Shown here piece after piece: positions 3,684 through 59,161 of a stretch of DNA of 64,000 nt. The translations under genes and the position numbers were made by a program. The DNA lies in IMG/VR virus record IMGVR_UViG_3300032163_000012, positions 726-64,725 of that record. One strand, given 5' to 3'. Every line of letters starts with the position of its first letter. Positions within the stretch are counted from its first letter, which is position 1. Source of the stretch: a virus (taxonomy: Duplodnaviria > Caudoviricetes). The notes under the pieces were generated by a model, which was not told the DNA's origin, searched no databases, and was given only the letters and a program-made list of their open reading frames with translations.

Positions 3684-4787
3684 ATGGCGAACGAACAGAG
3701 AGAAACACGCTTGAAGGATCCTATGCAGGAAGTGCTGGACCCGCTCCAGTTCCACCAGGGCGGCGCAGATCTGGGTGCTGTCGTTCCGGCCGGGCAGTCC
3801 GGCATGGCGCGCGCCGGGAGCTTTATGACCGGCATGCAGGGCGACATCATCACGGCGCAGCGCGTCGGCGTGCCGCGCAACATGAGCCGGATCCTGGCCA
3901 ACATGAAGGCGCTGGCCACGGCCGCGGGCAAGGAGTACGTCTACGGCTGGGAAGTCAACGACCGGAAGAATAACCGGAAGGTGTGGATCGAGGGGCCGAC
4001 GATCACCCTCGCCAACGACCTCGCGCGCGAGTACATGAACTGCCAGGTGGATTGCCGCGTCATGGACGAGGGCAAGCATTGGGTGTTCTACGCGCGCTTC
4101 GTGGACCTGGAAACCGGATTCACGATGGTCCGGGCCTACCAGCAGCGCAAAGGCCAGGACACCGGCATGAAGGACGACCAGCGCAGCCTGGACATGGTGT
4201 TCCAGATCGGCCAGTCGAAGGCGATCCGCAATGTGGTTGTCAATGCGCTGCGCTCGCTTGTCAATTACGCCGTCGACGCGGCCAAGGGCTCGCTGCTGGA
4301 CAAGGTAGGCAAGAACCCGGAGGGCGCGCGCACGTGGATCAGGCAACAACTCAAGGACCTGGGCGTGGACATCAAGCGCGTCGAAGCGCTGTACGGCCGC
4401 ACGTCGGAACACTGGACGACGCCGGACATGGCGCGGATCTACACCGAATTGCAATCGATTACCGACGGCATGATGAATGCCGAGGACGTGTATCCGGTAC
4501 CGCAGAAGGAAGAAGCGGCCCGGAAGCGCGAGGACTCCAACCCGCTCGCCGGCAATCAAGGCCAAGGTGTGGGAACCGCTGGAAATGGTGCGTCGGCGGG
4601 CGGTGCGGAGGCTCCACCGATTGGCCAGCCGACCGGAACCGAGGGCTCCGAGCCAGCAGGCAAGCCGCCAGGTGACATGATGGATGACGCCGACGCTGCC
4701 CTGGGCGGAGGGACTAAAGCCGAGGCGCCTCCGGCGAAGAAAGTCGCGGGCAAGAAAAAAGCGAACCTGTTCGGCGGTGACGCATAG
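3684..4787 (+). CDS. putative single-strand annealing/recombination protein
   Basis: AAGGAG RBS; EGPTITLANDLARE...FVDLETG...SKAIRNVV core with disordered tail; function inferred from position between exonuclease and ATPase. Confidence 0.5.
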   Translation: MANEQRETRLKDPMQEVLDPLQFHQGGADLGAVVPAGQSGMARAGSFMTGMQGDIITAQRVGVPRNMSRILANMKALATAAGKEYVYGWEVNDRKNNRKVWIEGPTITLANDLAREYMNCQVDCRVMDEGKHWVFYARFVDLETGFTMVRAYQQRKGQDTGMKDDQRSLDMVFQIGQSKAIRNVVVNALRSLVNYAVDAAKGSLLDKVGKNPEGARTWIRQQLKDLGVDIKRVEALYGRTSEHWTTPDMARIYTELQSITDGMMNAEDVYPVPQKEEAARKREDSNPLAGNQGQGVGTAGNGASAGGAEAPPIGQPTGTEGSEPAGKPPGDMMDDADAALGGGTKAEAPPAKKVAGKKKANLFGGDA

Positions 4788-43775: not shown

Positions 43776-44456
43776 ATGGCATCCTTCGACGGCTGGGACT
43801 GGGGAAAAATAGCGGGCGGGGTAGCGCAGAGTATCGTGCCGGCCGTCGCCACCTACTACGGCGCGAACAAGGTAGCTGACGCCAATCAGCAGGCGGCAAA
43901 CCTTGCAGCAGCGAACGCAGCCGCGAACCGCGGCGTGGTCACTGCGGCGAACGACAAGGCGATCAGCTTCCTGCAACCGCAGATCGACGCAGCCGCGCCG
44001 GCGCAGGACTACCTGCGCACCGTTATGGCGCAAAACCCATACCAGCTTAACCCGCAGCAGGAGATCGACCTTGCCGACAGGCGCCGGGCCGCTGTGACAG
44101 CGACGCCGACCGGACTGCGCGAATCAGGGCGCTACCTGACGGCCTCAATCAACGACGTGCAGAACCGCGGACGAGCCGGGATGATCGCGCAGAACACGGC
44201 GCGCACCGACGCAGCGGCGAACACGCTGGCTGCTCGCGGCGCGGGCGCATCGACCGGCGCAGCCAATCTTGCCTCGAACACCGGCACGCAGATGGTGGGC
44301 GTGAACAACGCCGGCACGGACGCCGCCGGCAACGCGATCACGGCGACGGCCGACTCGAACAACGCCTCCCTACAGAACATCGGTAGCTTCTTCGCCAATG
44401 CGATGAAAGGACGCTACGGGAGCGATCAGACGTACAAACTGGTGCCAAACAATTAA
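43776..44456 (+). CDS. putative ejection protein
   Basis: Ala/Asn/Gln-rich; position after tail genes. Confidence 0.6.
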   Translation: MASFDGWDWGKIAGGVAQSIVPAVATYYGANKVADANQQAANLAAANAAANRGVVTAANDKAISFLQPQIDAAAPAQDYLRTVMAQNPYQLNPQQEIDLADRRRAAVTATPTGLRESGRYLTASINDVQNRGRAGMIAQNTARTDAAANTLAARGAGASTGAANLASNTGTQMVGVNNAGTDAAGNAITATADSNNASLQNIGSFFANAMKGRYGSDQTYKLVPNN

Positions 44457-44468
44457 AGGACGGACAAA

Positions 44469-45854
44469 ATGGCCATCAACTTCGCAAGCGCCCGCCCGGG
44501 CATTGACCTGTTCAACGCCAATGTGGCGCGCGACGACGCGCAGCGCAGGCAGGAGGAGCACGACTTCATGCTCCGCAGGCAGTACGAGCAGGCGCAGGGC
44601 GCGGACAAGGGCATGCGCAACGCAATCGCGGCCTACTATGCCCAGAAACAACCAGCGGCCGTGGCTCCGGTACCGACGACCGCTTTCCATCCGACGCCTG
44701 CCATGGTGCCAAATCCCGCCGCCACGACGCCGGTGGTGTCGCCGGACCAGTCGATGAACCCTGCCGACAACCCGGACTACGGTGGGCCGACCAGCTCCGC
44801 GCCGATGCCGAACGCCGTCCCGCGCGCCGGTGTCGACGTGCCCGCGACCGTTGCCGCGCCTCCCATGCCTGCCGCCGCAGCGGCGCCAGCGGCAGCGCAG
44901 CCAGCGCCAGGAGCGCGCCAGGGCGGCGGCTTCGGCACGATGATGGGTGAACTGGCGAAGCAACCCGGTACCGGCGCATCGATGATGTCCCTGTTCGGCA
45001 CAGACCTTGCGAGCCAGCGCTCCGCTGGTGTCGAACGAGCAAAGCTACACCAAGAGGGACTAAAACTATTCATGGATGCGTCGAAAAACGACGATGTTGC
45101 GTCGATGCGCGCCATTGCTGCGAAATACGACTTCGGTATTCCGCCAGAGGTTCTGAACAATCGTGCCGTGATGGCTAAAATCGCTTCCATGGCCAAGGTG
45201 GCGAAAACGATCGGGATCACGGATGACGAGCGTGCCCTTGGATTCGCCAAGGGATACATGCACGCAGAAGCGGCTGGCGCAGACCCAAACACTTCGTTTC
45301 AGGCCGCAATCGCCGAAGCTCAAAAGACGCAACCAACCTTCAAAGCGGTGCACTGGGATCAGACACCCGAGGGCGAGGTAACTGGGTTCGACGCGCAGGG
45401 AAACGCAAAAGCTACAGGAGTGAAAGGGAAACAGCAGAAATGGCAGGTTTTCGGTCCTGGTGGCGCCGGCGAAAGACCAACCGCGACGGTCCAGAACCGC
45501 GACGACATGGCGAAGCGCCTGAAAGTCGCATACCCGGGCCTGGACGATGGCGTTGTGCAGCGCCTAGTGGTCAACCCGCGCGCCCAGATTACCGCACAGG
45601 ACATTATGCGCACCGAGGCGAGCATGCGCAAGCTCACCAACATGGGTCGCCCGCTCTACAAGACTGACGCCGAGGCGCACACCGCAGCCGTGGCGGCCGT
45701 TCGCGCCGCGCAGCGCGATGCTGGCGTGCTTGTCGGTGGGGAGGGCGCGCCTGGTGCTACAGCGCCTGGCCCTGCGGACAGCGGACCAGCCGGGCGCGTG
45801 CCGCCGCCGGTGCGCATGCGCTTTGACTCGAGTGGAAATGAGATCTCGCAATGA
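44469..45854 (+). CDS. putative ejection protein
   Basis: helical, Pro/Ala-rich; coupled to giant gene. Confidence 0.6.
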   Translation: MAINFASARPGIDLFNANVARDDAQRRQEEHDFMLRRQYEQAQGADKGMRNAIAAYYAQKQPAAVAPVPTTAFHPTPAMVPNPAATTPVVSPDQSMNPADNPDYGGPTSSAPMPNAVPRAGVDVPATVAAPPMPAAAAAPAAAQPAPGARQGGGFGTMMGELAKQPGTGASMMSLFGTDLASQRSAGVERAKLHQEGLKLFMDASKNDDVASMRAIAAKYDFGIPPEVLNNRAVMAKIASMAKVAKTIGITDDERALGFAKGYMHAEAAGADPNTSFQAAIAEAQKTQPTFKAVHWDQTPEGEVTGFDAQGNAKATGVKGKQQKWQVFGPGGAGERPTATVQNRDDMAKRLKVAYPGLDDGVVQRLVVNPRAQITAQDIMRTEASMRKLTNMGRPLYKTDAEAHTAAVAAVRAAQRDAGVLVGGEGAPGATAPGPADSGPAGRVPPPVRMRFDSSGNEISQ

Positions 45855-48800
45855 GCGTAGAGGCCGAGCTTAGCGACGGCACAATCCTCGAGTTCCCGGA
45901 CGGGACTGCGCCTGACGTCGTCCGCCGGACCGTAAAGCGCCAGCTTGGGCTGGCCGGGCCGGTCAAGCCAGCACCTGCGCCAGCACCGACAGCGGAGGAA
46001 TTGGCGGCCAGCAAGCCGGCGCGTAGCACTCTCACGCGCGGCGGGCAGCCTGTAATCCAGCCAGCCACCATGCCTGTCATCACTGAGCCTACCGGGTCAG
46101 TCATGGACTCGTTTGTGGCTAGGCCGCAGGAGCAGCTAGCGAACATAGCCCAGTCACTGCCACAAACGGAGATCGGAAATGAAACGACGCAACGCGAAGC
46201 GGTTAAAACCAATGACGGACAAATTGCGCTTGGCACTCAGGCGAGCGGCCCAAGGGTGGAAATTCCACGACGAAGGCGCGAAGCCACACCAGCCGAGTCT
46301 GTTGACGCCGCGGTAAAGCTGGCCGCCGACGTCGAGCGCGTGCGCAGCGCAAAGTATCTGACGCAGCCGACGATCGAGGAGGCGGCGCAGAGCAGCCTGA
46401 CGCGGCCGTTGACCGAAGCGGAGAAGCCGCGCGCGAGCTTGCGCTCACTGCCTGGCGACATCGCCACGGCCGCACGGCAAACGCCGAACGCTATCGCTGC
46501 CGGGGTTTCGTCCTTCCTGCAGGGCGGGGCACCGGAGGATGTATTCGGCTCTCCGGACTGGAAGAACGAGGCGATCAAGGAAGCGCGCTACAACGCGGAG
46601 CAGTCGTCCAAGAGCAAGGATTCGCAGGATAAGTACGTCGATTTCCTGGGGATCAAACTCAACCGGAACGATGTGCGCACGGCGCCACAAAATCTGGCAT
46701 TTTCCGTCGTTTCGATGGGCGCCTCCGTGCTCGCCGGGCTCGGCGGGTCTGTCGTTGGCGCGCTCGCCGGGCCAGTCGGATCGCGCGTTGTCGGAGCGGC
46801 CGCTGCTGGCGGCGCCGGCGGAGCAGCAGCCTACCGCATGGACACCAACAACTTCATGCGCGATTTGCGCCAGTACATGGACAAGGCTGCGCAGGGCCAG
46901 CTAGGGCGACCGTTGACGGACAAGGAGTTCATCGATGTCGCCACGGCGCCGTCGATGCACGACGCGGCGAAGCAGATTGGACTTGCCATACGGTCGAGCA
47001 AGAGCGGCCAGGCGCTGGCGCAGGAGCACGGACTGCACGAGGCCGGATGGGAGGCGATCGGCAACATGATTATGCTGGGCGCTGGCAAGTACATCATCAA
47101 AGAGGCGCTGAAAGGCGGGATCCTGAAACCGGCGCTCGGAGCCGTTGTAGGAACGGCCGGCGAAGTCGGAACGGAAATGCCCACCCAGATGGGCCAGCAC
47201 AACGTCGAAGTCGCCGCAGGCATGTCGCGCGAGGCGCCGCGGTCCTGGACAAGCGCATCCGACTGGTGGAAATCGTTCGAGGAAGTGGCCGGGCCAACCA
47301 TCCTGACCACCTTGGCAATGGGCGGCATGGCTGGCGGCGGCGCGGTGGCTGCGCGCGGCGTGCAGCGCATGGACGAGCGCCTGCGCCCAGGGGCGGCGAT
47401 CGGGCGCGCGCTCGAGGCCGATATCGCCGACCGCGGGATGCCGCCCGGAGCGGCAGACGCCGCAGCGCGCGCCTCCCTGAGCCTCCAGCCTGGCACGCCG
47501 GGCGACTTGTCCGCGGCGATGGCGCATCCGGGCACCTTGCAGGAATACATCGCCGAGCGCGACGCAAAGGCAGCAGAGGCCGCAGCCGTAGCTGCCGCAG
47601 CGCAGCCGCCCGTAGCGCCAGCGCCCGCCAGCGCGCCGGTAGCAGAGGCCCAGCCGCCGGCCGGAGCGCCTGTAGAGGCTCCTGCGGCACCGGCAGGAAC
47701 CCAGGCCGATGGCGAGCTGGGCACGTTTACGTGGATTGACGGGGAAGTGTCGCGCGGGACGTCTGAAGAAGGCGGAACCATACTCAAGCTCGGAGATCAG
47801 CGGATTCCAGTTACTCCGGAAGATGGGACGTGGGGGCCGGCGCCGGAGGGCGAGAACACGCCAGCGAAGCCGGTGAAGGTGGAAACGGCGCAGCACGTCG
47901 ACTTGGCCAGCCAGGGCATAGCCGCCGCGCCCACCGACGCGCAGAAGAAGGCTGGGACCTACCAGAAAGGCCACATCGACCTGCAGGGCCTGAAAATCAG
48001 CCTGGAGAACGCGAGGGGCAGCGAGCGCACCGGCATTGACGCCGACGGAGAGCGTTGGAGCACCGTCATGCCTGCCGCGTATGGATACATAAAACGCACA
48101 GAGGGCGCCGACGGCGATCAGGTCGACGTCTACGTGGGCGATGTCCCGGAAAGCCAGCAGGTGTGGATCGTTGACCAGATCGACCCTGCCACCGGAAAGT
48201 TCGATGAGCACAAGGTCATGCTCGGGTTCACGACCAAGGCGCACGCCGTTGCCACGTATCACACCGCCTTCAACGACAACAGCGGGCCGTCGCGCGTTGG
48301 TTCAGTAACCGGGATGTCGGTGCAGCAGTTCAAGGACGATTTCCTGAAAGGCCACGACCTAACCAAGCCGTTCGGGTATTTTGAAAAACGGCCAGCAGCA
48401 CCACAACCGAAGGAGGCACCAAATGCCCAAACAGTACGAAGCGATGCGGGACAAGTTCGCCAAGGGGGCGCCGAAGGACAGCCCGGCCTACAACCAGGCG
48501 CAGAGCAAGGCGGCGGCAATCTACAACAGCCGTCACCAAGCGGCACCAATGTCGGCCGCCCACCCGGAGGGGGCGCCGAAACAGTCACCGCGCAGCGGCC
48601 TGTCAACGAAGCTGGGCCGCCCGGCACCGGCGGGGATGCCAGCAATCAGCCAGTTTCACAGCCGCAAATAGGGAGAAACAGGTTCCAGCTCGATCGACAA
48701 CTCACAGCCTTGCGCCTCGACCACAAGAAGCTAGTGCAAGGTTTGCCGGTCGCCGAAGATATGGCGATGAACGACCGCGGTGCGAGCTTGACCCGGCTGC

Positions 48801-51800
48801 AGGCTAAGATCGACACGAACCAAGCGACGCAGAAAGAAATTCTCAGTGAGATAGCTGCGCTTGAGCCAGCCGAAGCAACAGCGCCAGAGGCAAAACCTAC
48901 CAAGGCCGCGCTGATCCCGACGCGCACGCCTAGCGGAGGTATCGAGTACGTCGTCCAGCCGCTGCGCGAGGGTGCTGCGCCGGAAACAAAGATCGTGCCC
49001 GATGAAGCGCCGGCCTTCGGCGAATCGAACAAGGTATTCACCAAGGACGCCGCGGACAAGGCGCGCGAGCTGCTGCGCAAGAAACTCGGCCAGGTGAGCA
49101 TGGGGCTCGACCCGGAGATCGCGCAGGCCGGCATCCAGCTTGCTGGGTATTACATCGAGGGCGGCGCGCGATCGTTCGCCTCCTACTCGGCCAAGATGCT
49201 CGCCGACCTTGGCGACATGGCCAAGCCGTACCTGAAATCGTGGTATGCCGCCGTGTTCTATCACCCAGGCATGAACACCGAAGGGATGGAGGAGCCTGGC
49301 AGCATCAAGGAAGCCGCGGCGCCGGCAGCGAACGTCTACAACGTGGGCGACAAGGTTATCTACCGGCCGATGGTTGGGCCGTCGCCGATGCACGCCACCA
49401 TCACGCGCATGACGCGCGACAACGACGGCACTGAGCGCATTGAACTGAGCACCGGCCACCGCGGCATCGAGGCGGCGAGCGACAGGCTTACCCGCGACGT
49501 TGCGGCGCCGGCTGAAACGAAATCGCCAATCGGTGAGACATTCCCGCTGAAATCTGAAACGAACGCGCCAATCGGTGAGACATTCCCGCTGAAATCTGAA
49601 ACGAACGCGCCAATCGGTGAGACATTCCCGCTGAAATCTGAAACGAACGCGCCTGCGGCTGAAATGATCGCCCCCACCGGTTCTACCAATGTACCAATGC
49701 AAAGTACAACGCCAGCGCCAGCCGGTGGCATGACGGTCGAGAAGCGCCAGCACACCAAGACCGGCGCCGACATCTGGGTGGTGAAGGGTGGCGCGCGCGT
49801 AAGCCGCAGCGACTACCTGACCATGAACGCCCGCGCGAAGCGCCTGGGCGGAGGCTGGTCGAACTACACCAAGGGGTTCAATTTCCACAGCGAGGCCAAG
49901 GCCAACGAGTTCGCCGGCATCAAGCCTACGGAGCAATCTGCTGCGCCTGAAATGTCAGAGTACGAAAGCCGTGCTGCTTGGGGTGATGCAGAAACCGGAC
50001 AGCCATTCACCGCGATCGCTTACCGAGCGCGCAATGGAATTGAAGAAATTCCAAAAGAGCAACGCGGCTTTTGGGCTGAGACTGAAGACGGGACTGCTGG
50101 ATACGGATACGGAAAATCAGGCATCACGTCAGTGTTTAAGGATACCGTCAGCGTATCGAACCCGCTGGTGGTCGATGACCAGATGGACGCAATCATTGAA
50201 TTGTTTGGAAAGGACAGCAAAGAGCGTGAGGGCTATTTTGATGCCAAGGACAAGGGCGATGATGCAGATCGGTATGCAGACAAAGTTTTAGCTCCGGCAG
50301 CGCGCGCCGCAGGCTACGACGCGATCATCTACCGGCAAGACACAAATCTTTACGGCGCACCGACTAGATCAATTCACGTTCTTGGACAGGAGACACAAAA
50401 TGCCAAACCCGACTCCGCAGCCATGCGCCTTGCCGAGCGCATCAAGACCGAGGTAATCGTCGGCCAAGATAAGATCAACAACGTCGATTTGATGCGCATG
50501 GCGCGCGAGGAATTCGGCGAGTCATTCAGCCCGAAGGAGGCATACGATGCCGTCGAGGCCGGGATGAACCTGTATCTCCGGGAAACGCCGTCACTCAGCG
50601 ATCCGACCAGAGCAGCAACCGCGCAGCAGGCGCGCATCGTGGTGGCGAAGCTGCGCACGGCGACCGACTTCCTGCCAACGCAGAACGTGCGCGACAAGGA
50701 ACAGGAGGAATACCAGCAATTCAGCACTCCGCCGGCCATCGCCTGGCTCGTGAACTGGGTGGCGCAGGTGCGGCGCGGAGAGACTGCGCTGGAACCGTCC
50801 GGCGGACTTGGCGGACTCGCCGTGTTTGCCGAGGGCGCCGGCGCAAAGGTCGTCATCAACGAACTGTCCGCGCGCCGCGGCGCAGTGCTGAGAGATTTGT
50901 TCCCGGATGCGCGCATCTTCACCGAGGACGCCAGCCAACTGAACAACGTGCTTCCGGACGACGTGAAGCCGACCGTGGTCATCATGAACCCGCCATTCTC
51001 GGCTACGGCCGGCAGGATCGAGGGTCGGCGCTCGAACAAGGAAGGGCTCGCGCACGTCGACCAGGCGCTGAAACGGCTGGAACCGGGCGGGCGTCTCGTC
51101 CTCTTGATGGGCGAGGGCATGGCGCTGGACCTACCTGGGCAGCGTGAATGGTGGGATAAGACGCGCGCGGAGTACAACGTCCGCGCAAATATCGGCATCG
51201 AAGGCAGCGCCTACATGAAATATGGCACGACTTTCGGTGTCCAACTCATTGTCATCGACAAGACCGGGCCAACAACGGCCGAGCCTGTGGTGGCAAAAGA
51301 TGCGGTGCTGGGCGACGTGCCGGCACTGCTGGAGGATCTCCGTGATAGACCTGAAAGCGGTACAACGAGTGAACAACCACCCGCTCAACCGGGCAGCGGG
51401 GAAGTGGCTGCCGGCGCGGTTACGCAACAAGGATCAAATCAACCTGCTGGCGTTGGCGCAGTGGGGGCTGGAGAACGGCCTGGAAATCAAGCCACCAAGC
51501 CCGGAGCAGCCGACACTGGACGAAGTGGAACAGAAACTCCAGATGTTGGCGCGCGGCCAGCCGTTGCAGGCGCTGCAGTTCATCCAGGAAGTGGACGGGG
51601 AGAAAGTGCTGGAACCGTCAGATCTGGAAAGCCAACCGGACCGGAAGGAAGCGGCGAGCTTGCTGCTTCAGACTCTGTACAGCAACATGGTGGCGAGTCG
51701 GGCCTGACAGTCACATCAACCACTGCGGCTAAGAACGAAAGCGATCTCAGCGATTCAGTCTACGAGAACTACACGCCGAAGCGGTTGAAGATCGAGGGAG

Positions 51801-54800
51801 CCAAGCCGCACCCTGGCAAGCTCGTCGAGTCAGCCGCCATGTCAGCGGTAGACCCGCCTGCGCCGACCTACACGCCGAACCTGCCGCGCGAGGTCATCAC
51901 CAAAGGCATGCTGTCGATCGCGCAACTCGAGGCGGTGGTGTACGCCGGGCAGGCGCACTCCCAGATGCTTCCCGGCACAGAAGGCAAGCAGCAACGCCGT
52001 GGGTTCTTCATCGGGGACGGGACCGGCGTCGGAAAGGGCCGCGAGATCGGCGGCATCATCCTGGACAACATGCGCCAAGGCAGGAAGAAGGCTGTATGGA
52101 TCTCGGAGAAGCAGGGCCTGCACCTGGACGCGCAACGTGACTTCGAAGGTGTCGGCGGAAACCCGGCCACAATTTTCAGGCAGGGGGCCACATCGGCGAA
52201 GAATGCCATCACTGCCAAATCAGGCATTTTGTTCAGTACCTACTCGATGCTGCGCAGCGGAGAGAAGAAGCAGGCGACCGACAAACAGGAAAAGGGAAAG
52301 TCGCGCATCGATCAGTTGGTTGATTGGCTTGGGGAGGGCTTCGACGGTGTGCTGGTGTTCGATGAGGCGCACAACATGGCGAATGCCGTGCAGCAGCGTG
52401 GCGCGCGCGGCGTTAAGGCTCCGTCAAAAATGGCGATCGCGGCTCTCAACCTGCAAGCGCGTCTGCCACAGGCGCGCGTGGTGTACGTGTCCGCCACCGG
52501 CGCGACCGAAGTGCAGAACCTTGCCTACGCGGCACGCCTTGGCCTGTGGGGCGAGGGCACTCCATTCGCCGGGCGGGACGAATTCCTGAACCAGATCGAC
52601 GCAGGCGGCGTGGCGGTGATGGAACTAGTTGCCCAGAACATGAAGGCGCTTGGCGTCTATATGTCGCGTTCTCTGTCATACGACGGCGTGAGTTACGACA
52701 GGCTGGAGCACAAACTTGAGCCAATTCAGCGCGAACTGTACAACAAGCTCGCTGATACGTGGCAACTGGTCCTGAGAAGGGTAAACCAGGCGCTAGGCGA
52801 CACCGGGCAGGATAAAAGCGGAAACGCCAAAGGGGCGGCGATGTCGCGCTTTTGGGGCGCACACCAGCGCTTTTTCAACCAGATCATCACGGCAATCCAG
52901 ATGCCGACAATCATCGCCAACGCCAAGGCAGCGATCGAGGCTGGCGATGCCGTTGTCATGCAACTGGTCAACACCAACGAGGCCGAGCAGGAGCGCCAGG
53001 CGGCGCGCGCGGAGATCGAGGGTGAGGAACTGGAAGAACTTGAGTTCGGGCCGATGGATAGCCTGATCGAGTTCGTCACCGCCGGCTTCCCGGTGCAGCA
53101 GTACGTGGAAGCGGACGACGGCAATGGCAACGTCATTTCAGTGCCGGCCACAGACGCGGCCGGAAATCCGGTCATCAACAGGGATGCTGTGGCGTCGCGC
53201 GATGCGCTGATCGCTGAATTGCAATCCATGAAGCGCACGAGCGCGATCCCGGGCAACCCGATCGATCTGGTCATTGAGGAGTTCGGGCCGGAGGCGGTGG
53301 CGGAGATCACAGGGCGCAAGCGCCGTTTCGTCCGTATCAAGGGCGAATCCGGCGAGTACGTCATGACCGAGCAGAAGCGCGGGGCCGCCGCGGCACAGAA
53401 CGACGCCAAGGCTTTCATGGAGGACAAGAAGCGCGTCCTGATCTTCTCGGACGCTGGCGGTACTGGCTTTTCGTTCCAGTCTGACCTTGGCACCAAGAAC
53501 CAGCGTTTGCGCCACCACTACCTCGTTCAGCCCGGCTGGCGCGCTGACAAGGCCGTTCAGGGGCTCGGGCGCACTCATCGAACCAACGAGGCGAACCAGC
53601 CGAAATACCTGCTTCCAACCACCGATTTGAAGGCGCAGAAGCGGTTTATCTCGTCCGTCGCTCGCCGACTTGACCAGCTCGGGGCGCTCACGAAGGGGCA
53701 ACGCCAAACCGGCTCTCAGGGCCTGTTTTCGGCGAAGGACAATCTGGAGTCGCAGTATTCTACGGCCGCCGTTACGACGCTATTCGAGGACATGCACGGT
53801 GGGCGCACACCGCTGGACTTTACTGATGTCACCGCCCAAATGGGGCTCGACATGATCGACCCGCGCACCGGGGCGCTTTCCAGGGACAAAATCCCTACCG
53901 TGCCGCGTTTCCTGAACCGCCTACTATCGATGCGCATGGAAACCCAGGATCAGGTGTTCGAGGAGTTCATCCGGCGCATGGAGGAAGCGGTAGAAAACGC
54001 CATTGCCGCCGGGCACTACAACGACGGCATGGAAACCGTGCGCGCGCAGAAGGTGGCGATCACGCGCGTCGAGGTTGTGCACACCGACGAGCGCAGCGGG
54101 GCGGAAACAAAATACTACGACCTCGAGCTGACGCACCCAAATATCATCAACAAGTTCGACGCGGTACAGGACAAGATCGCAGCCGAGGAGGAATCCGCGC
54201 CTCCGGGCGTGACGCGGGACCACTTCTTCTACCGCAACGAGAAATCGGGCAAGGTATTCGCCATCATCGAGCGCGGGCAGCGCGTAAATGCGCAGGGGCA
54301 TCCGTTCACCAGAGGCAGCCGATGGGGTGTCACCGGACTGCCGCGCTACGTCGACAACGTAGAAGGCGTAAAGAGCGGCTCAACCGGGTACGGCGAGCGC
54401 GAGATCACCTACACGAAACTGACCGAGGCTCAGGCACAGGAAGCGTGGAAAAAGGAACTGGCGAAGGCGCCGCCGACCTACACCGACCACTTACACATGA
54501 TCGCAGGGGCCATCCTGCCAGTGTGGAACCGGATCACCGGGGACAATGCGCGCGTGGTGCGCACGCAGACCGAGGACGGAACCAGATTGATTGGGCGCGT
54601 CGTTCCGATTGGTCAGTTGAAGGACACGCTGCGCAATCTTGGTGTCGGCTCGACCGTTGCAAAACTGCCAGCCGCAGATATTTTCAAGCGCGTAATGGCT
54701 GGCGAGCGCGGCCTGCTTGCCGATGGCAGTACGCTCGTGACCGTGAACCTTCTTGGATCAAAGAGGGTGGAATTGAAGGCTCCGCACGGCATGACGTCCG

Positions 54801-57800
54801 CCAAGTCGCGCCAGTTGACAGAGCAGGGAGCGCAGATCGAGCGGCACCAGTGGACTGAGCGCGCGTTTATTCCGAACGGCGACGTTCTGGAGCGCATCCT
54901 GGAAACGACGCCGATCGTGGAGCTTGGCGCGGAAGGCGGAGAGAAGTACAGCCTCGGCACCGGCGAGCGCCCGGCCGCCAACGTGGCCTCCGAGGTCCGC
55001 CGCATCGCCGAGGAAATGTTCCCGAAGGCGAATCTGGCGATGGTCGATCGCTTGTTCGGCGAAGGCCCGGCCGTGGTGCGCTCCGGGGCGCCCAGCGAGG
55101 CGCGCATCGAGGCAGCCGGCAAGTACAACACCGGGCGCCAGTTGATGACCGTGGCGATGAACTACGAGGACCCGACCAAGACGATCCGGCACGAGGGCGT
55201 GCACGCGCTCTACGACATGGGCATGTTCAAGGAAGCCGAGTGGACCATCCTGCAGCGCGAGTCGACCAATCGCTGGATGAAGGAGCACAACGTACCAGAC
55301 AACGAGGAAGGGATAGCCAAGGCATTCCAGTTCTACCGCGCCGGCGGCAAGTTCGCTGGGCCGGTGGGGCGCGCGTTTGACCGCATCAGGGATTTCCTAC
55401 AGCGGATTGGAAACGCCCTACGCGGCCTGGGCTACCAGAACGTGGACGACATTTTCAAGCGCATCGAATCAGGCGAGGTCGGCGCCGCGGTGCGCCCCGG
55501 CAGCATGGCCGACTTGGCCAGCATGACGCTTGAGAGCTACGCCAAGATGCCGCTGTCGTACCGCATGGCCGTGCGCGACGACCTGAATGCGGTGCTGGAG
55601 AAGTTCTCTGCTGCTGGCGGGGTGGCCCAAAAAAGCGCTGCAGCGATGTTCAATCAAGAACAGATCGACGCCGCGAGCCAAACAAAATGGAAAAGCAGGG
55701 AGAAGCTAGTTGACATGCCAATAGCCGATTTTCTTCGGCTGGCAGCGCAAGGGGAAAGCGAGTTCAAGCGCAAGCGTGTCCAAGAGGTTCTAGACCGCGG
55801 GGATAAGTTCAGTGATTTGCCGTACCTGTTGGTGAAAACAGAAGGTGGCAACGTGGTTGTAATGGGGCAGGGGGAGTCGCATGAAGGGCGGCACCGGGCT
55901 AGAGCGCTACAGAAACTCGGGTACACCACTATACCTGTAGTGATAAAAGGCGACATTCGGTGGTCTGAGCAAACCGATTCGAAGCTGTTCGATTATAAAG
56001 CTCAGTGGCCCAATAAACTTGTTGGCCAGAGTGGTGAAAGTGTGCCGTTTCCAGTAATGCGTGAGGATGCGGCTGCAAATTATTCTAAACATCCAGACGT
56101 TCGCTATAGCCTGGGCAGCGATCTGCCTGACAACATCGCCGTGATCCAGAAGCAGACGGGTAATGACGTGTTGCCAACCACCCGTTTCGCGGCGAACCCG
56201 CGCAATGCGTTTTTCGGCGAGCCTGTCCTGCGTGAATTGCAGAAGTTCGCCACTCACATTGAAACCCAGATAGCGCGCACCGCCAAGAGCTTTTCTGACG
56301 AATATCACGGCATCAGAAAAAAACTGAACAAGAGCGAGCGAGACACGCTGGATGATGTCCTTTGGGTAGGCGAGGCGGACGAGGTTGAATTCACCGAGCA
56401 ACAACTGCGCGAGGACATCGGCTGGACTGATCCAAAGCTCATCAAGGCGTACAAGGATTTCCGCTCTCTGGTGGAGAAGATGGGGCGCTTCGTCGATATG
56501 CACCGCCGGTCGATGAAGTTCGAGTACACGGAGAGAAAGAAAAAGGTGCTTGTCCGTATGGCCAATCTGAGGGTGATGGATGTGGCCGAGTTCCGCAGCC
56601 TCTATGGCCGGCGCCTGCGCCTGCGCGGCAAGGTGCGCGACGGAGACGTAGACCCAGCCACCCTTGCGGCACTGGACGCCATCGAGGAACAGATGCAAAT
56701 CATCCGTGAGGAAACGGACGAGTACCAGGATCTGGTGAAAGAAATCGACCGCATTGATGGCATCCTGGCCGAAACGTCGATCCGCACCAAGGTTGGCTAC
56801 ATGCCGCACAAGTTTTTCGGCACCTGGGCCACCTATCGCTTGGTCGAGGAGCCGGTTCTGGACAAAGAGGGCAAGCCGACGATGGACCCGGGCACCGGCG
56901 AGCCGGTCACTGAGACGGTGCACAAGCTCGTTGCTGGCGAGCACGGGTTCTACCCGAACCAGAAAGCGGCAGTCACGGCGGCCGAGCGCGCCTCGGCGCT
57001 GGCTCCAGACGACCAGTTTGAAGTGCGCGCGGTGCAATTCAAATTCCCGAATGCGGCAGCCACCACCCTGACAGATGCCTCGTTCTGGACATTCCTCGGG
57101 AAGTTTAGCGCGGCAACCAGCCTGCACGGGCAGGATCTGCGCGACGCGACAGAGGGCATCGCCCGCCGCCGCTTCCGCCGCCGCATTGCCGGGTTCACCC
57201 AAAAGCGCACCGGCGTCGAGGGGTTCAGCAAGGCCATGGACAGGGTGATGCTCTCCCACATCGGCGAGGTCACCCGGTACGTGTTCCTGGACAAGTTCAA
57301 GTACCGCGCCATCAGCGACATGGAAAAGCTCAAGATGTCGCCGTTCCAGTCGCAAGACACGAAGCACCCAACGCTATCGAAGATGGTTGAGGCATACATT
57401 CGTGACATGAACGGCCAGAAGCAGCCGATGGAGAAGTCGGTAGACGAGTCGCTTGACTGGATCGCATCCAGGCCGTGGGCGAAGGCTGCCTTTGTCGGGC
57501 TGCCGGCGTCCGCCGCGGGCGCCTCGCTCATGTTCGGCATCTCCACCAATCCGCTGGTCGCCGCGGCCGTGTCCGGCTACGTCGGATGGCGCCTGTACTC
57601 GTCGATCTCGCGCGATACTGAGTTCAAATCAAGGGCGCTTACCCAGGATCTACTTGGCGACATGGCGCACGCGAAGCTGGGAGCGTTCTTCAACCTCGCG
57701 TCCGGCATCGTCAATTTGACCCAGACGCCAATCAATACCCTGCCGGTGCTGGGTCCGAAGTACACCATGATTGGGATGCAGAAATTGGCCGGCGCGCTCT

Positions 57801-59161
57801 GGTCTAGAATCAATAGTCGCGGCGGCGTGATTCGCGTGAACAGCGATTACCGTCTGCTGGAGCGCTCTGACACGCTCTCGAACGACACATACAGCGAAGC
57901 CAGCCTACTCTACTTGGCGCAGCATCGGCTTGCGCGCTGGTCCCTTGCCTTCTTCCGTACCACGGAGGCGTTTAACCGGGCGGTGACGTTCCTCGGTGCA
58001 TACCACCGGGCTAAGGACAAAGGCAAACTGCACGGCCCGGCGTTCGCCGAAGCCGAAGCCACGATGAAGTTCACGCAACACCCATACGGCAATGCGGACA
58101 ACGCCGAGATCCTGCGCAACGTCTACCTGCGGGTGCCGTTCCAGTTCAAGAAGTACATGGCGCAGCAGATCGCCTACGAGTTCGAGCTTGGCCGAAAATT
58201 CACCACAGGGAAATCAATCCATGATTCTCAAGTCGAAATACCGCGCGAAGCCCTATTGTGGAATCTCATGTCGGTATTCCTCGTCGCTGGCACGCTTGGG
58301 CTTCCGTTCATTGCGCTACTCGCCTCTATCATCAAGGGCGTCAGCGATTGGGATCCTCTCGATTGGATCAAGAGAAAAGCGCTTGAGGCACAGGCTTTGG
58401 GCAAGCTGGCAGCCGGCGCGGCCACTGTTGTCGCTCGCGGGCTCCCTGCTTGGGCTATTGGCGAGGACATGTCCGCCCGCGCCGGCATGGGCGAGCAGTT
58501 CACGCCGCAGCAGGCTACCGACCTACTCGGGCCGTGGTGGAGCACTATGGACAAAGCCCGCCAGCTCGGGGAGCTACAAGCCGGATTCGTTGACCAACTA
58601 GCGAACGTGAGTCCTGGCGCCGGCAAGCCGCTGAAGGCGATAGAGGCGATGGCGAACGGCATGCCGATCGCCATGTCCGTTACCGATACCAAGAGGTTCT
58701 ACGAGGCATTCGCCGACAACAAGATCGACTGGGTGAGCCCGTGGAAGAACCGGACGGACTTTGATGAGAACCAACTCTCAAAGGCCGATGTGGCGCGCAT
58801 GGCGTTCGGTTCCACTCCGACCAATGTTGCTATGGCACGCAGCGAGGTACAGGGGCTGGCCAAGGAAACCGCCTTGGAAAAGAAGAAAACACAGCTTTAC
58901 CTGAACAAGATTATCTCGGCGAACCGCGACTACGGGAGCGACGAGAAGAAGGACAAAGACGGGAAAACTAAACTGGATTATGCTCTCGACAAGATTGCGA
59001 ACGACGCTGAAAAGGCTGGCGTTTCTCTGTCTGAGCCAACGATCAAGAAAGCGCTCGCTGACGCACAGACGCCGCGGCTGCAGCGTGCTATCAAGGGGGC
59101 GCCAAACAAAATGCGCGGAGAGGCATCGTCGCGTTCTGAGTCGTTGCTGCAACAACAATAA
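45851..59161 (+). CDS. giant DarB-like polyvalent virion protein (4436 aa)
   Basis: InPase-like (YGYIKRTEGADGDQVDVY), N6-MTase (LEPSGG, NPPF), strawberry-notch SF2 helicase (GDGTGVGKGR, DEAH, SAT, QGLGRTHR), HEGVH metallopeptidase, EGRHR ParB-like module. Confidence 0.9.
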   Translation: MSVEAELSDGTILEFPDGTAPDVVRRTVKRQLGLAGPVKPAPAPAPTAEELAASKPARSTLTRGGQPVIQPATMPVITEPTGSVMDSFVARPQEQLANIAQSLPQTEIGNETTQREAVKTNDGQIALGTQASGPRVEIPRRRREATPAESVDAAVKLAADVERVRSAKYLTQPTIEEAAQSSLTRPLTEAEKPRASLRSLPGDIATAARQTPNAIAAGVSSFLQGGAPEDVFGSPDWKNEAIKEARYNAEQSSKSKDSQDKYVDFLGIKLNRNDVRTAPQNLAFSVVSMGASVLAGLGGSVVGALAGPVGSRVVGAAAAGGAGGAAAYRMDTNNFMRDLRQYMDKAAQGQLGRPLTDKEFIDVATAPSMHDAAKQIGLAIRSSKSGQALAQEHGLHEAGWEAIGNMIMLGAGKYIIKEALKGGILKPALGAVVGTAGEVGTEMPTQMGQHNVEVAAGMSREAPRSWTSASDWWKSFEEVAGPTILTTLAMGGMAGGGAVAARGVQRMDERLRPGAAIGRALEADIADRGMPPGAADAAARASLSLQPGTPGDLSAAMAHPGTLQEYIAERDAKAAEAAAVAAAAQPPVAPAPASAPVAEAQPPAGAPVEAPAAPAGTQADGELGTFTWIDGEVSRGTSEEGGTILKLGDQRIPVTPEDGTWGPAPEGENTPAKPVKVETAQHVDLASQGIAAAPTDAQKKAGTYQKGHIDLQGLKISLENARGSERTGIDADGERWSTVMPAAYGYIKRTEGADGDQVDVYVGDVPESQQVWIVDQIDPATGKFDEHKVMLGFTTKAHAVATYHTAFNDNSGPSRVGSVTGMSVQQFKDDFLKGHDLTKPFGYFEKRPAAPQPKEAPNAQTVRSDAGQVRQGGAEGQPGLQPGAEQGGGNLQQPSPSGTNVGRPPGGGAETVTAQRPVNEAGPPGTGGDASNQPVSQPQIGRNRFQLDRQLTALRLDHKKLVQGLPVAEDMAMNDRGASLTRLQAKIDTNQATQKEILSEIAALEPAEATAPEAKPTKAALIPTRTPSGGIEYVVQPLREGAAPETKIVPDEAPAFGESNKVFTKDAADKARELLRKKLGQVSMGLDPEIAQAGIQLAGYYIEGGARSFASYSAKMLADLGDMAKPYLKSWYAAVFYHPGMNTEGMEEPGSIKEAAAPAANVYNVGDKVIYRPMVGPSPMHATITRMTRDNDGTERIELSTGHRGIEAASDRLTRDVAAPAETKSPIGETFPLKSETNAPIGETFPLKSETNAPIGETFPLKSETNAPAAEMIAPTGSTNVPMQSTTPAPAGGMTVEKRQHTKTGADIWVVKGGARVSRSDYLTMNARAKRLGGGWSNYTKGFNFHSEAKANEFAGIKPTEQSAAPEMSEYESRAAWGDAETGQPFTAIAYRARNGIEEIPKEQRGFWAETEDGTAGYGYGKSGITSVFKDTVSVSNPLVVDDQMDAIIELFGKDSKEREGYFDAKDKGDDADRYADKVLAPAARAAGYDAIIYRQDTNLYGAPTRSIHVLGQETQNAKPDSAAMRLAERIKTEVIVGQDKINNVDLMRMAREEFGESFSPKEAYDAVEAGMNLYLRETPSLSDPTRAATAQQARIVVAKLRTATDFLPTQNVRDKEQEEYQQFSTPPAIAWLVNWVAQVRRGETALEPSGGLGGLAVFAEGAGAKVVINELSARRGAVLRDLFPDARIFTEDASQLNNVLPDDVKPTVVIMNPPFSATAGRIEGRRSNKEGLAHVDQALKRLEPGGRLVLLMGEGMALDLPGQREWWDKTRAEYNVRANIGIEGSAYMKYGTTFGVQLIVIDKTGPTTAEPVVAKDAVLGDVPALLEDLRDRPESGTTSEQPPAQPGSGEVAAGAVTQQGSNQPAGVGAVGAGERPGNQATKPGAADTGRSGTETPDVGARPAVAGAAVHPGSGRGESAGTVRSGKPTGPEGSGELAASDSVQQHGGESGLTVTSTTAAKNESDLSDSVYENYTPKRLKIEGAKPHPGKLVESAAMSAVDPPAPTYTPNLPREVITKGMLSIAQLEAVVYAGQAHSQMLPGTEGKQQRRGFFIGDGTGVGKGREIGGIILDNMRQGRKKAVWISEKQGLHLDAQRDFEGVGGNPATIFRQGATSAKNAITAKSGILFSTYSMLRSGEKKQATDKQEKGKSRIDQLVDWLGEGFDGVLVFDEAHNMANAVQQRGARGVKAPSKMAIAALNLQARLPQARVVYVSATGATEVQNLAYAARLGLWGEGTPFAGRDEFLNQIDAGGVAVMELVAQNMKALGVYMSRSLSYDGVSYDRLEHKLEPIQRELYNKLADTWQLVLRRVNQALGDTGQDKSGNAKGAAMSRFWGAHQRFFNQIITAIQMPTIIANAKAAIEAGDAVVMQLVNTNEAEQERQAARAEIEGEELEELEFGPMDSLIEFVTAGFPVQQYVEADDGNGNVISVPATDAAGNPVINRDAVASRDALIAELQSMKRTSAIPGNPIDLVIEEFGPEAVAEITGRKRRFVRIKGESGEYVMTEQKRGAAAAQNDAKAFMEDKKRVLIFSDAGGTGFSFQSDLGTKNQRLRHHYLVQPGWRADKAVQGLGRTHRTNEANQPKYLLPTTDLKAQKRFISSVARRLDQLGALTKGQRQTGSQGLFSAKDNLESQYSTAAVTTLFEDMHGGRTPLDFTDVTAQMGLDMIDPRTGALSRDKIPTVPRFLNRLLSMRMETQDQVFEEFIRRMEEAVENAIAAGHYNDGMETVRAQKVAITRVEVVHTDERSGAETKYYDLELTHPNIINKFDAVQDKIAAEEESAPPGVTRDHFFYRNEKSGKVFAIIERGQRVNAQGHPFTRGSRWGVTGLPRYVDNVEGVKSGSTGYGEREITYTKLTEAQAQEAWKKELAKAPPTYTDHLHMIAGAILPVWNRITGDNARVVRTQTEDGTRLIGRVVPIGQLKDTLRNLGVGSTVAKLPAADIFKRVMAGERGLLADGSTLVTVNLLGSKRVELKAPHGMTSAKSRQLTEQGAQIERHQWTERAFIPNGDVLERILETTPIVELGAEGGEKYSLGTGERPAANVASEVRRIAEEMFPKANLAMVDRLFGEGPAVVRSGAPSEARIEAAGKYNTGRQLMTVAMNYEDPTKTIRHEGVHALYDMGMFKEAEWTILQRESTNRWMKEHNVPDNEEGIAKAFQFYRAGGKFAGPVGRAFDRIRDFLQRIGNALRGLGYQNVDDIFKRIESGEVGAAVRPGSMADLASMTLESYAKMPLSYRMAVRDDLNAVLEKFSAAGGVAQKSAAAMFNQEQIDAASQTKWKSREKLVDMPIADFLRLAAQGESEFKRKRVQEVLDRGDKFSDLPYLLVKTEGGNVVVMGQGESHEGRHRARALQKLGYTTIPVVIKGDIRWSEQTDSKLFDYKAQWPNKLVGQSGESVPFPVMREDAAANYSKHPDVRYSLGSDLPDNIAVIQKQTGNDVLPTTRFAANPRNAFFGEPVLRELQKFATHIETQIARTAKSFSDEYHGIRKKLNKSERDTLDDVLWVGEADEVEFTEQQLREDIGWTDPKLIKAYKDFRSLVEKMGRFVDMHRRSMKFEYTERKKKVLVRMANLRVMDVAEFRSLYGRRLRLRGKVRDGDVDPATLAALDAIEEQMQIIREETDEYQDLVKEIDRIDGILAETSIRTKVGYMPHKFFGTWATYRLVEEPVLDKEGKPTMDPGTGEPVTETVHKLVAGEHGFYPNQKAAVTAAERASALAPDDQFEVRAVQFKFPNAAATTLTDASFWTFLGKFSAATSLHGQDLRDATEGIARRRFRRRIAGFTQKRTGVEGFSKAMDRVMLSHIGEVTRYVFLDKFKYRAISDMEKLKMSPFQSQDTKHPTLSKMVEAYIRDMNGQKQPMEKSVDESLDWIASRPWAKAAFVGLPASAAGASLMFGISTNPLVAAAVSGYVGWRLYSSISRDTEFKSRALTQDLLGDMAHAKLGAFFNLASGIVNLTQTPINTLPVLGPKYTMIGMQKLAGALWSRINSRGGVIRVNSDYRLLERSDTLSNDTYSEASLLYLAQHRLARWSLAFFRTTEAFNRAVTFLGAYHRAKDKGKLHGPAFAEAEATMKFTQHPYGNADNAEILRNVYLRVPFQFKKYMAQQIAYEFELGRKFTTGKSIHDSQVEIPREALLWNLMSVFLVAGTLGLPFIALLASIIKGVSDWDPLDWIKRKALEAQALGKLAAGAATVVARGLPAWAIGEDMSARAGMGEQFTPQQATDLLGPWWSTMDKARQLGELQAGFVDQLANVSPGAGKPLKAIEAMANGMPIAMSVTDTKRFYEAFADNKIDWVSPWKNRTDFDENQLSKADVARMAFGSTPTNVAMARSEVQGLAKETALEKKKTQLYLNKIISANRDYGSDEKKDKDGKTKLDYALDKIANDAEKAGVSLSEPTIKKALADAQTPRLQRAIKGAPNKMRGEASSRSESLLQQQ
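48423..48671 (+). CDS. candidate nested gene 1 (82 aa, +1 frame inside giant gene)
   Basis: AAGGAGG RBS 6 nt before ATG; G/C-ending codons shift to this frame. Confidence 0.6.
   Translation: MPKQYEAMRDKFAKGAPKDSPAYNQAQSKAAAIYNSRHQAAPMSAAHPEGAPKQSPRSGLSTKLGRPAPAGMPAISQFHSRK
49524..49653 (+). repeat. 42-bp tandem repeat x3 in giant gene
   Basis: CGCCAATCGGTGAGACATTCCCGCTGAAATCTGAAACGAACG, three exact copies. Confidence 0.95.
51342..51707 (+). CDS. candidate nested gene 2 (121 aa, +1 frame inside giant gene)
   Basis: GGAGG RBS 6 nt before GTG; amphipathic helical product; codon bias in this frame. Confidence 0.6.
   Translation: MIDLKAVQRVNNHPLNRAAGKWLPARLRNKDQINLLALAQWGLENGLEIKPPSPEQPTLDEVEQKLQMLARGQPLQALQFIQEVDGEKVLEPSDLESQPDRKEAASLLLQTLYSNMVASRA

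Follow-up and report, generated by a model that had tools for sequence, protein, structure and literature searches.

Candidate small genes nested in the linkers of a giant DarB-like polyvalent protein gene of a phage

Introduction

Small genes can be carried wholly inside larger ones, as in phage lambda, where Rz1 lies within Rz, shares its strand, is read in the +1 frame from a ribosome-binding site (RBS) and start codon of its own, and encodes a lipoprotein that binds the product of its host gene. The textbook direction of such overprinting is the birth of a new small gene inside an old large one. The helper proteins of the phage P1 protein DarB are encoded by separate genes. Overprinted genes of small viruses (phiX174 B, K and E, and others) are treated in two reviews (PMC8227390, PMC6195259), and polyvalent proteins were described by Iyer et al. 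(2017, PMC5512222). The present analysis concerns two open reading frames (ORFs), designated n1 and n3, that lie in the +1 frame of a giant DarB-like gene on a 64,000-nucleotide (nt) stretch of phage DNA (the window; positions 726 to 64,725 of the IMG/VR virus record IMGVR_UViG_3300032163_000012). As judged from sequence comparisons, n1 and n3 are very probably real protein-coding genes nested in the giant polyvalent gene of this podovirus-type phage, and the linkers that the giant gene encodes over them would be their by-product.

Like Rz1, n1 and n3 are same-strand ORFs enclosed in a larger phage gene and read in its +1 frame, each with its own RBS and start; unlike Rz1, neither has a lipobox or signal, the host segment is a low-complexity linker that is seemingly a derived by-product, and several unrelated families are found in one class of giant proteins. 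Similarly to small-virus overprinting, two frames are used and one product is compositionally odd or disordered, with atypical codon usage, whereas the direction differs, the small gene here looking older and the linker of the large gene looking like the overprint. The host gene is of the same kind as those of P1 DarB and the polyvalent proteins, combining an InPase domain, a methyltransferase and a strawberry-notch helicase, but nested genes are no part of the family as described in the main text of PMC5512222, which has 0 occurrences of 'overlapping', 'linker', 'frameshift' or 'low-complexity'. Full-text literature searches, supplements excluded, yielded no account of genes nested in those for polyvalent or DarB-like proteins. 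Like the immunity genes of polymorphic toxins, n3 is inherited with one module junction, but immunity genes lie downstream of the toxin gene, whereas n3 is nested in another frame and n1 lacks constant neighbours. The arrangement differs from Rz/Rz1 and from small-virus overprinting in the apparent direction of overprinting, in its location in polyvalent linkers and in the recurrence of several families.

Results

Nested frames in the window

The initial annotation, made without database searches, had reported a Shine-Dalgarno (SD) sequence and a start codon in the same +1 frame at 48423, 50400 and 51342, and all three are present (Table 1). The ORFs of 82 and 121 aa that it had placed across linkers were also found, and the two low-complexity linkers are filled almost exactly by them. 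The start of n1 lies 31 nt past the last motif of the InPase flank (FGYFEKR, 48371–48391) and its stop falls at 48671, where GRNRFQLD begins, and n3 starts inside the motif that ends the methyltransferase (LLEDLRDR, 51326–51349) and stops 41 nt short of the conserved helicase start SDSVYENYTPKRL (51749). The claimed move of the codon bias to the +1 frame was likewise observed, the G+C fractions at codon positions 1, 2 and 3 (GC1/2/3) being 0.64/0.47/0.74 for the whole giant gene, compared with main-frame values of 0.79/0.68/0.35 at 51401–51700 (n3) and 0.79/0.59/0.55 at 48401–48700 (n1); the +1 reading gives a normal coding pattern in both, weaker for n1 than for n3. SD-like sites followed by a start were counted nine times in the +1 frame of the giant ORF, once in frame 0 and never in +2, the nine comparing with 4.0 ± 2.0 in shuffles, and behind seven of them only junk is opened. 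On its own, the window is therefore suggestive and not significant; the significance comes from related loci.

The idea that the three sites are hidden genes with the linkers as by-products was supported for 48423 and 51342, each with a conserved ORF, an SD and start and a conserved +1 peptide, to which n3 adds a confident predicted fold, and not for 50400. The latter was rejected as a gene: its ORF is too short, and in homologues the +1 reading at that position yields R/P/S-rich junk, the conserved sequence being the main-frame domain.

Conservation of n3 in related loci

With the methyltransferase-helicase region as the query, 24 viral loci (43–53% identity), 22 of them with the junction, and 10 loci from metagenome-assembled genomes (MAGs), 8 with the junction, were obtained, and the n3 ORF was found by local hidden Markov model (HMM) search in 26 of the 30 junction loci. 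The seven MAG copies, which were absent from model building, are each nested in an open stretch of 1297–2696 codons. A +1 ORF of 108–160 aa is present in 15 of the 17 non-redundant viral loci as well as in the window, and all 16 of these sequences (15 with ATG, the window with GTG) have an SD-like GGAG-type site at the same position, 5–12 nt before the start, with both SD site and start encoded within the main-frame motif LLEG(V/I)RN(D/E)R. In 23/23 sequences (22 viral loci and the window), the main frame crosses the linker without a stop and in register with its flanks. Stops in the linker are few in the +1 frame (1–10) and usually many in +2 (up to 24), and even the AT-rich locus L024 has 3 of the former versus 24 of the latter.

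The frame-specific GC3 comparison across homologues that had been proposed gave a concordant result, since main-frame GC3 in the n3-bearing linkers is well below that of the flanks (for example, 0.40 vs 0.83 in L019), and the loci L018 and L020, a natural control without n3, have a short 264-nt linker with a GC3 of 0.94 and neither the SD nor the ATG. The n3-less locus L021 has a different linker, and L120 is ambiguous, with a long +1 run that is unrecognised by the HMM. An extra, folded-looking main-frame segment was also observed in the methyltransferase-helicase linker of L021 (6604–7197) and L022 (6619–7485); it resembles the window protein at aa ~1050–1150 (…YLKS.Y…) and is additional to n3 in L022, replacing n3 in L021.

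When the three frames were aligned separately and compared with shuffles, the median z was found to be 5.1 for +1, 0.7 for the main frame and 0.4 for +2, and +1 conservation exceeded that of the main frame in 111 of 120 n3 pairs. The n3 peptides share the motif N..PLN..A...L....PDP..LY.LQL..WGL and a C-terminal P..AA..LL..L. Purifying selection thus acts on the +1 protein of n3 beyond the demands of the main frame, and n3 is co-inherited with the methyltransferase-helicase junction.

Nested, divided and free-standing copies of n1

The n1 family comprises 73 database relatives of 45–128 aa, with 55–87% identity over the first ~45 residues, a conserved stretch MPKQYEAMRDKFAKGA..DSPAYN.AQSKAAAIYNS and a basic tail; the median net charge of the family is +10. 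In 7 of 11 other contigs (L106–L111 and L126), n1 lies in the +1 frame of ORFs of at least 1970 codons, and SD-like sites with ATG or GTG precede the copies in other loci. Free-standing copies occur in L125 and L127, where the N-terminus is likewise MPKQYEAM. Additionally, in L112 (3724–4449) and L128 (2212–6174) n1 straddles two ORFs of the same frame, with only one stop, within n1 or beside it, to separate them. The flanking main-frame domains vary by locus, an InPase domain lying upstream only in the window, L106, L108 and L110, and the comparison of n1 with 80 InPase-bearing loci gave no match, the region after the InPase domain being non-homologous among those phages. In L127 and L128, the genes beside n1 match nothing in Pfam or PHROGs and do not resemble those of the window. 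The proposal that such genes travel with each cassette was therefore upheld for n3, which stands at its junction in 26/30 loci, and not for n1, with its differing flanks and free-standing copies.

Among six nested copies, the differences at n1 codon positions 1, 2 and 3 amount to 110, 92 and 178, respectively, and are therefore fewest at the third position of the main frame; n1 identity also exceeds main-frame identity in 15/15 pairs. The third-position excess and the higher n1 identity together suggest that the main-frame text GQPGLQPGAEQGGGNLQQ is a shadow of DSPAYNQAQSKAAAIYNS. Purifying selection is thus found on the +1 protein of n1 as well, again beyond what the main frame demands.

A third family and other candidates

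When 100 giant ORFs from the retrieved loci were scanned for segments with GC3 moved to an alternative frame, n1 and n3 were recovered and, additionally, an unrelated third family (MSQLPQYLQSAV...) of 64 aa in the +1 frame. It occurs in 28 distinct giant ORFs, in loci between L034 and L105 (for example, L034:2549–2740), ~460 nt upstream of the InPase domain, with an SD-like site and ATG, and a G/P/A-rich linker is what the main frame encodes there. Differences by its own codon position number 4119/4181/6103, and its identity is 0.73 in the nested frame vs 0.61 in the main frame, the nested value being higher in 367 of 378 pairs. Every convincing nested case was in the +1 frame. Smaller candidate +1 clusters, in which the bias has moved to +1 and the sequence is protein-like, were also noted in the giant ORFs of L066 (5273–5668), L107 (7535–7867) and L097/L098 (2588–2755 and 6257–6685), and near 4700–5500 in L058, L061, L072 and L073.

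Predicted proteins

The AlphaFold2 model of n3, built from a 16-row alignment, has seven helices, with a pLDDT of 92.3 and a pTM of 0.85. The family is mostly acidic (median net charge −7), and its profile, searched against 1.84 billion representatives, matched 974 cluster representatives at E ≤ 1e-3 and 352 at E ≤ 1e-10, nearly all of 108–150 aa and aligned end to end. Eight relatives at 71–98% identity are 121–122 aa long, with the same C-terminus in 8/8 and the N-terminus V/MI(D/V)..K kept in 7/8, P0235 beginning differently. The nested ORFs of L012 and L009 recur unchanged as the public proteins P0077 and P0078, respectively, so that the claim that gene callers would miss these genes is only partly true; the called copies in public sets are unnamed or 'hypothetical'.

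No Pfam or PHROGs family was found for the window copy of n3 or for 10 relatives, and names never went beyond 'hypothetical'. The best E value in a PDB sequence search was 0.038, Foldseek of the model against PDB and BFVD gave no match at E ≤ 0.001, and the structural comparison (VIA wide) reached no more than Z 4.0, a low value even among helical proteins, with 0/48,161 chains at Z ≥ 5. The ESM Atlas search gave nothing usable, and a sub-threshold match of one relative to DnaG_DnaB_bind (E 0.008) was set aside as chance. Among 8000 candidates, no longer fused form was found at E ≤ 1e-6, a result that counts as weak evidence. Elsewhere, n3 domains were seen twice in tandem (P0109), at the C-terminus of the 364-aa P0179, the locus of which was not found in viral contigs, and with N-terminal extensions of 60–70 aa (P0135, P0141). 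In P0217, n3 is in frame with the helicase N-terminus, and the end of this protein looks out-of-frame, probably owing to indel errors. Co-folding of n3 with the methyltransferase domain and the helicase N-domain, run without controls, gave a score of 0.00, which speaks neither for nor against binding.

For n1, AlphaFold2 predicted a helical hairpin at residues 3–37 (pLDDT ~88) followed by a disordered tail. Searches for a function in Pfam and PHROGs with the window copy, in Pfam with a 42-member family set, in PDB by sequence and in the ESM Atlas gave only leads. DUF7218 was discarded, as the window copy matches 0 Pfam families and 5 of the 42 members match it with a best E of 0.002, below the gathering threshold; DUF6496 was also discarded, being only the nearest named ESM Atlas cluster (0.77).

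The giant gene and its surroundings

The window covers nearly all of the 64.7-kb record, which is rated complete and has a G+C fraction of ~0.60. The giant protein matches the DarB-like phrog_10089 in a PHROG search, and it is a polyvalent protein in the sense of the main text of PMC5512222, with several conflict-related enzymatic domains in one polypeptide. Genes for the large terminase, a P22-like portal, a tailspike and a head-closure protein lie upstream, and the position of the giant gene after those for portal, tail and head closure suggests that its product may be packaged in the virion and injected with the DNA. The adjoining genes (43776–45854; 226 and 461 aa) gave zero Pfam or PHROG matches. 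Two further observations were made within the giant gene: a 14-residue unit (PIGETFPLKSETNA) is present in three exact tandem copies (49526–49651), and a 45-aa basic +1 ORF preceded by a GGAGA-type site lies in the N-terminal part (46179–46316), with a mild GC3 shift (0.58/0.49/0.71).

Table 1. Positions in the window of the giant ORF, its main domains and the candidate internal initiation sites.
Feature	Position	Strand	Remarks
Giant ORF	45851–59161	+	4436 aa, polyvalent DarB-like protein
InPase domain of the giant protein	47936–48337	+	aa 696–829; PF18823, E 2e-47; just upstream of linker 1
n1 Shine-Dalgarno	48412–48416	+	GGAGG, 6-nt spacer, then ATG at 48423
n1 candidate nested gene, +1 frame of the giant ORF	48423–48671	+	82 aa; main frame there is a G/P/Q/A-rich linker
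50400 site, +1 frame	50400–50456	+	GGAGA, spacer, ATG; only 18 codons; chance site
N6-adenine-type DNA methyltransferase domain	50528–51340	+	~aa 1560–1830; NPPF motif at 50981–50998; methyltransferase PHROG match
n3 Shine-Dalgarno	51331–51336	+	GGAGGA, 5-nt spacer, then GTG; sits in main-frame motif LLEDLRDR
n3 candidate nested gene, +1 frame	51342–51707	+	121 aa; main frame is a G/A/P/S-rich linker from methyltransferase to helicase
Strawberry-notch-type helicase	51806–54034	+	AAA_34, aa 1986–2299; Helicase_C_4, aa 2469–2728

Discussion

Weighing of the explanations

If n1 and n3 were chance open frames, their length would follow from GC-rich DNA, which gives long ORFs, and the raised GC1 and GC2 from the G/P/A linkers unaided. 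The window taken alone agrees with this, as the two open runs rank only 4th and 8th longest in the +1 frame, longer +1 and +2 runs lie inside folded domains of the giant ORF, the n3 span is stop-free in 14.7% of codon shuffles and the seven other +1 sites are evidently chance. The comparative data contradict it and leave chance with virtually no probability: ORF, SD and start are conserved across the junction loci, AT-rich ones such as L024 included, conservation is seen in the +1 peptide and not in the main-frame one, and both families have relatives in the databases, with a pLDDT of 92 for n3 and free-standing copies for n1. Conservation of this kind also makes it highly improbable that the frames are decaying relics, engulfed by gene fusion, no longer expressed and still shaping codon usage. 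The absence of n3 from 4 of the 30 junction loci and the unrecognised +1 run of L120 would fit such a decay; however, the frame is kept with SD and start intact in lineages sharing 13–30% n3 identity, a third-position excess of substitutions is seen in n1 and the third family, and start, stop and length are kept in the n3 relatives at 71–98% identity.

The position of the starts bears on a programmed frameshift from the giant frame, by which truncated giant proteins ending in the n1 or n3 domain would be made, with the internal SD as the stimulator. SD-like sequences can indeed stimulate frameshifting (prfB, dnaX), and P0217 reads n3 in frame with the helicase N-terminus, but its end is probably the result of indel errors, and the +1 frame is closed by a stop one codon upstream of the conserved ATG in L002 and L009, or a few codons upstream in other loci, so that no room is left for a shift site. 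With an ATG or GTG at the same position in 16/16 sequences and the same MPKQYEAM N-terminus in free-standing n1, frameshifting is considered very unlikely. Little probability is likewise given to a division of the giant ORF into separate proteins, with the main-frame sequence over the nested genes as an untranslated spacer between them, even though a main-frame stop splits the flanks at the n1 site in L112 and L128 and main-frame codon usage over the nested genes is abnormal. The absence of main-frame stops in 23/23 junction sequences, in frame with both flanks despite A/T-rich third positions, stands against it, as does the depletion of C, W, F, Y and M from the linkers, which are far from a raw shadow, implying selection on a translated linker.

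Besides the window counts given above, several points weigh against reading n1 and n3 as expressed nested genes. The start of n3 in the window is GTG, compared with ATG in 15 homologues, and the four junction loci without a detectable n3 indicate that it is dispensable in some lineages. The per-locus codon-shuffle probability of no +1 stop ranges from 0 to 0.15 and the summed log10 is −40.6, a sum that overstates independence because the loci are related, although n3 peptide identity is only 13–30%. By the Nei-Gojobori method, 23 n3 pairs gave pN/pS values of 0.74 in the n3 frame vs 1.22 in the main frame, which carry little weight, as these pairs approach saturation (pS 0.65) and the n3 peptide served as the guide for the alignment, which leans towards n3. 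Evidence of translation was sought, and no RNA run containing the region was found; contigs of four runs contain related sequences, for which 40 of the 442 differences were available, too few for a count by codon position. No close cultured relative was found, as tblastn of the n1 and n3 peptides against 50,697 GenBank phage records gave no match and tblastn of the junction gave distant methyltransferase matches (25–31% identity, 12 records). The direction, engulfment versus de novo overprinting, is drawn from codon usage and free-standing copies and not from a rooted tree. The shadow-frame argument is also modest, R making up 19% of the −1 frame versus ~5% of the real linkers, in which G is 21%. 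Relative to the raw shadow, the real linkers are depleted of R, C, W, F, Y and M, and have therefore been shaped too.

Origin and possible functions

On the reading of n1 and n3 as nested genes, each would most likely be made by internal initiation from its own SD and start on the mRNA of the giant gene. Selection over these segments would act mainly on the +1 protein, and the main frame need only stay open and hydrophilic, so that it yields flexible linkers that are rich in G, P, A and Q and abnormal in codon usage. That n1 and n3 are the older readings, and the linker of the giant gene the overprint, is suggested by codon usage, by foldability and by the free-standing homologues. A small gene lying between or across two neighbours of the same frame may have been engulfed by loss of the separating stop, with its expression kept; along this route, L112 and L128 would represent the state one stop away, and L125 and L127 the free state. 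In ordinary genes of the phage, the −1 frame has 2.0 stops per 100 codons vs 3.4 in the +1 frame, and it is Gly-rich, and these properties of the frame one base behind may be a partial reason for the +1 rule.

Concerning function, the tie of n3 to its junction might hint at an accessory partner of the DarB-like methyltransferase-helicase module, and the charge of n1 at nucleic-acid binding, so that n1 could conceivably be a nucleic-acid-binding or virion-associated small protein; both suggestions are guesses. The initial annotation had proposed that the products are perhaps inhibitors or chaperones of the adjacent enzymatic domains, a role that would likewise be speculative. A wider proposal is offered tentatively, as possible and somewhat doubtful: polyvalent-protein linkers in general may be −1-frame shadows of genes that were swallowed by stop-loss fusion and are still expressed from internal RBSs as hidden accessory proteins, the products of which could be packaging chaperones, inhibitors held until injection or nucleic-acid binders.

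Implications

Overlapping phage genes are known, and what is added here is that two unrelated conserved small-protein families, with a third elsewhere, coincide with the linkers of giant multi-enzyme proteins, and that these linkers bear the marks of a secondary reading. A possible route of growth for polyvalent proteins follows, namely fusion across a small gene without losing that gene, and it would account for the odd composition and codon usage of their linkers, the 'disorder' of which could wrongly be taken for a trait that the large protein has evolved. A large unnamed family (n3, 974 clusters), with a confident predicted fold that is so far unmatched, is exposed and tied to the DarB-like methyltransferase-helicase module, and phage proteomes will lack such proteins wherever the annotation pipeline does not allow nested genes. 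If the general proposal on linkers is true, at least three unrelated families, one of them with nearly a thousand clusters at 50% identity, would form an unannotated and widespread part of phage counter-defence modules.

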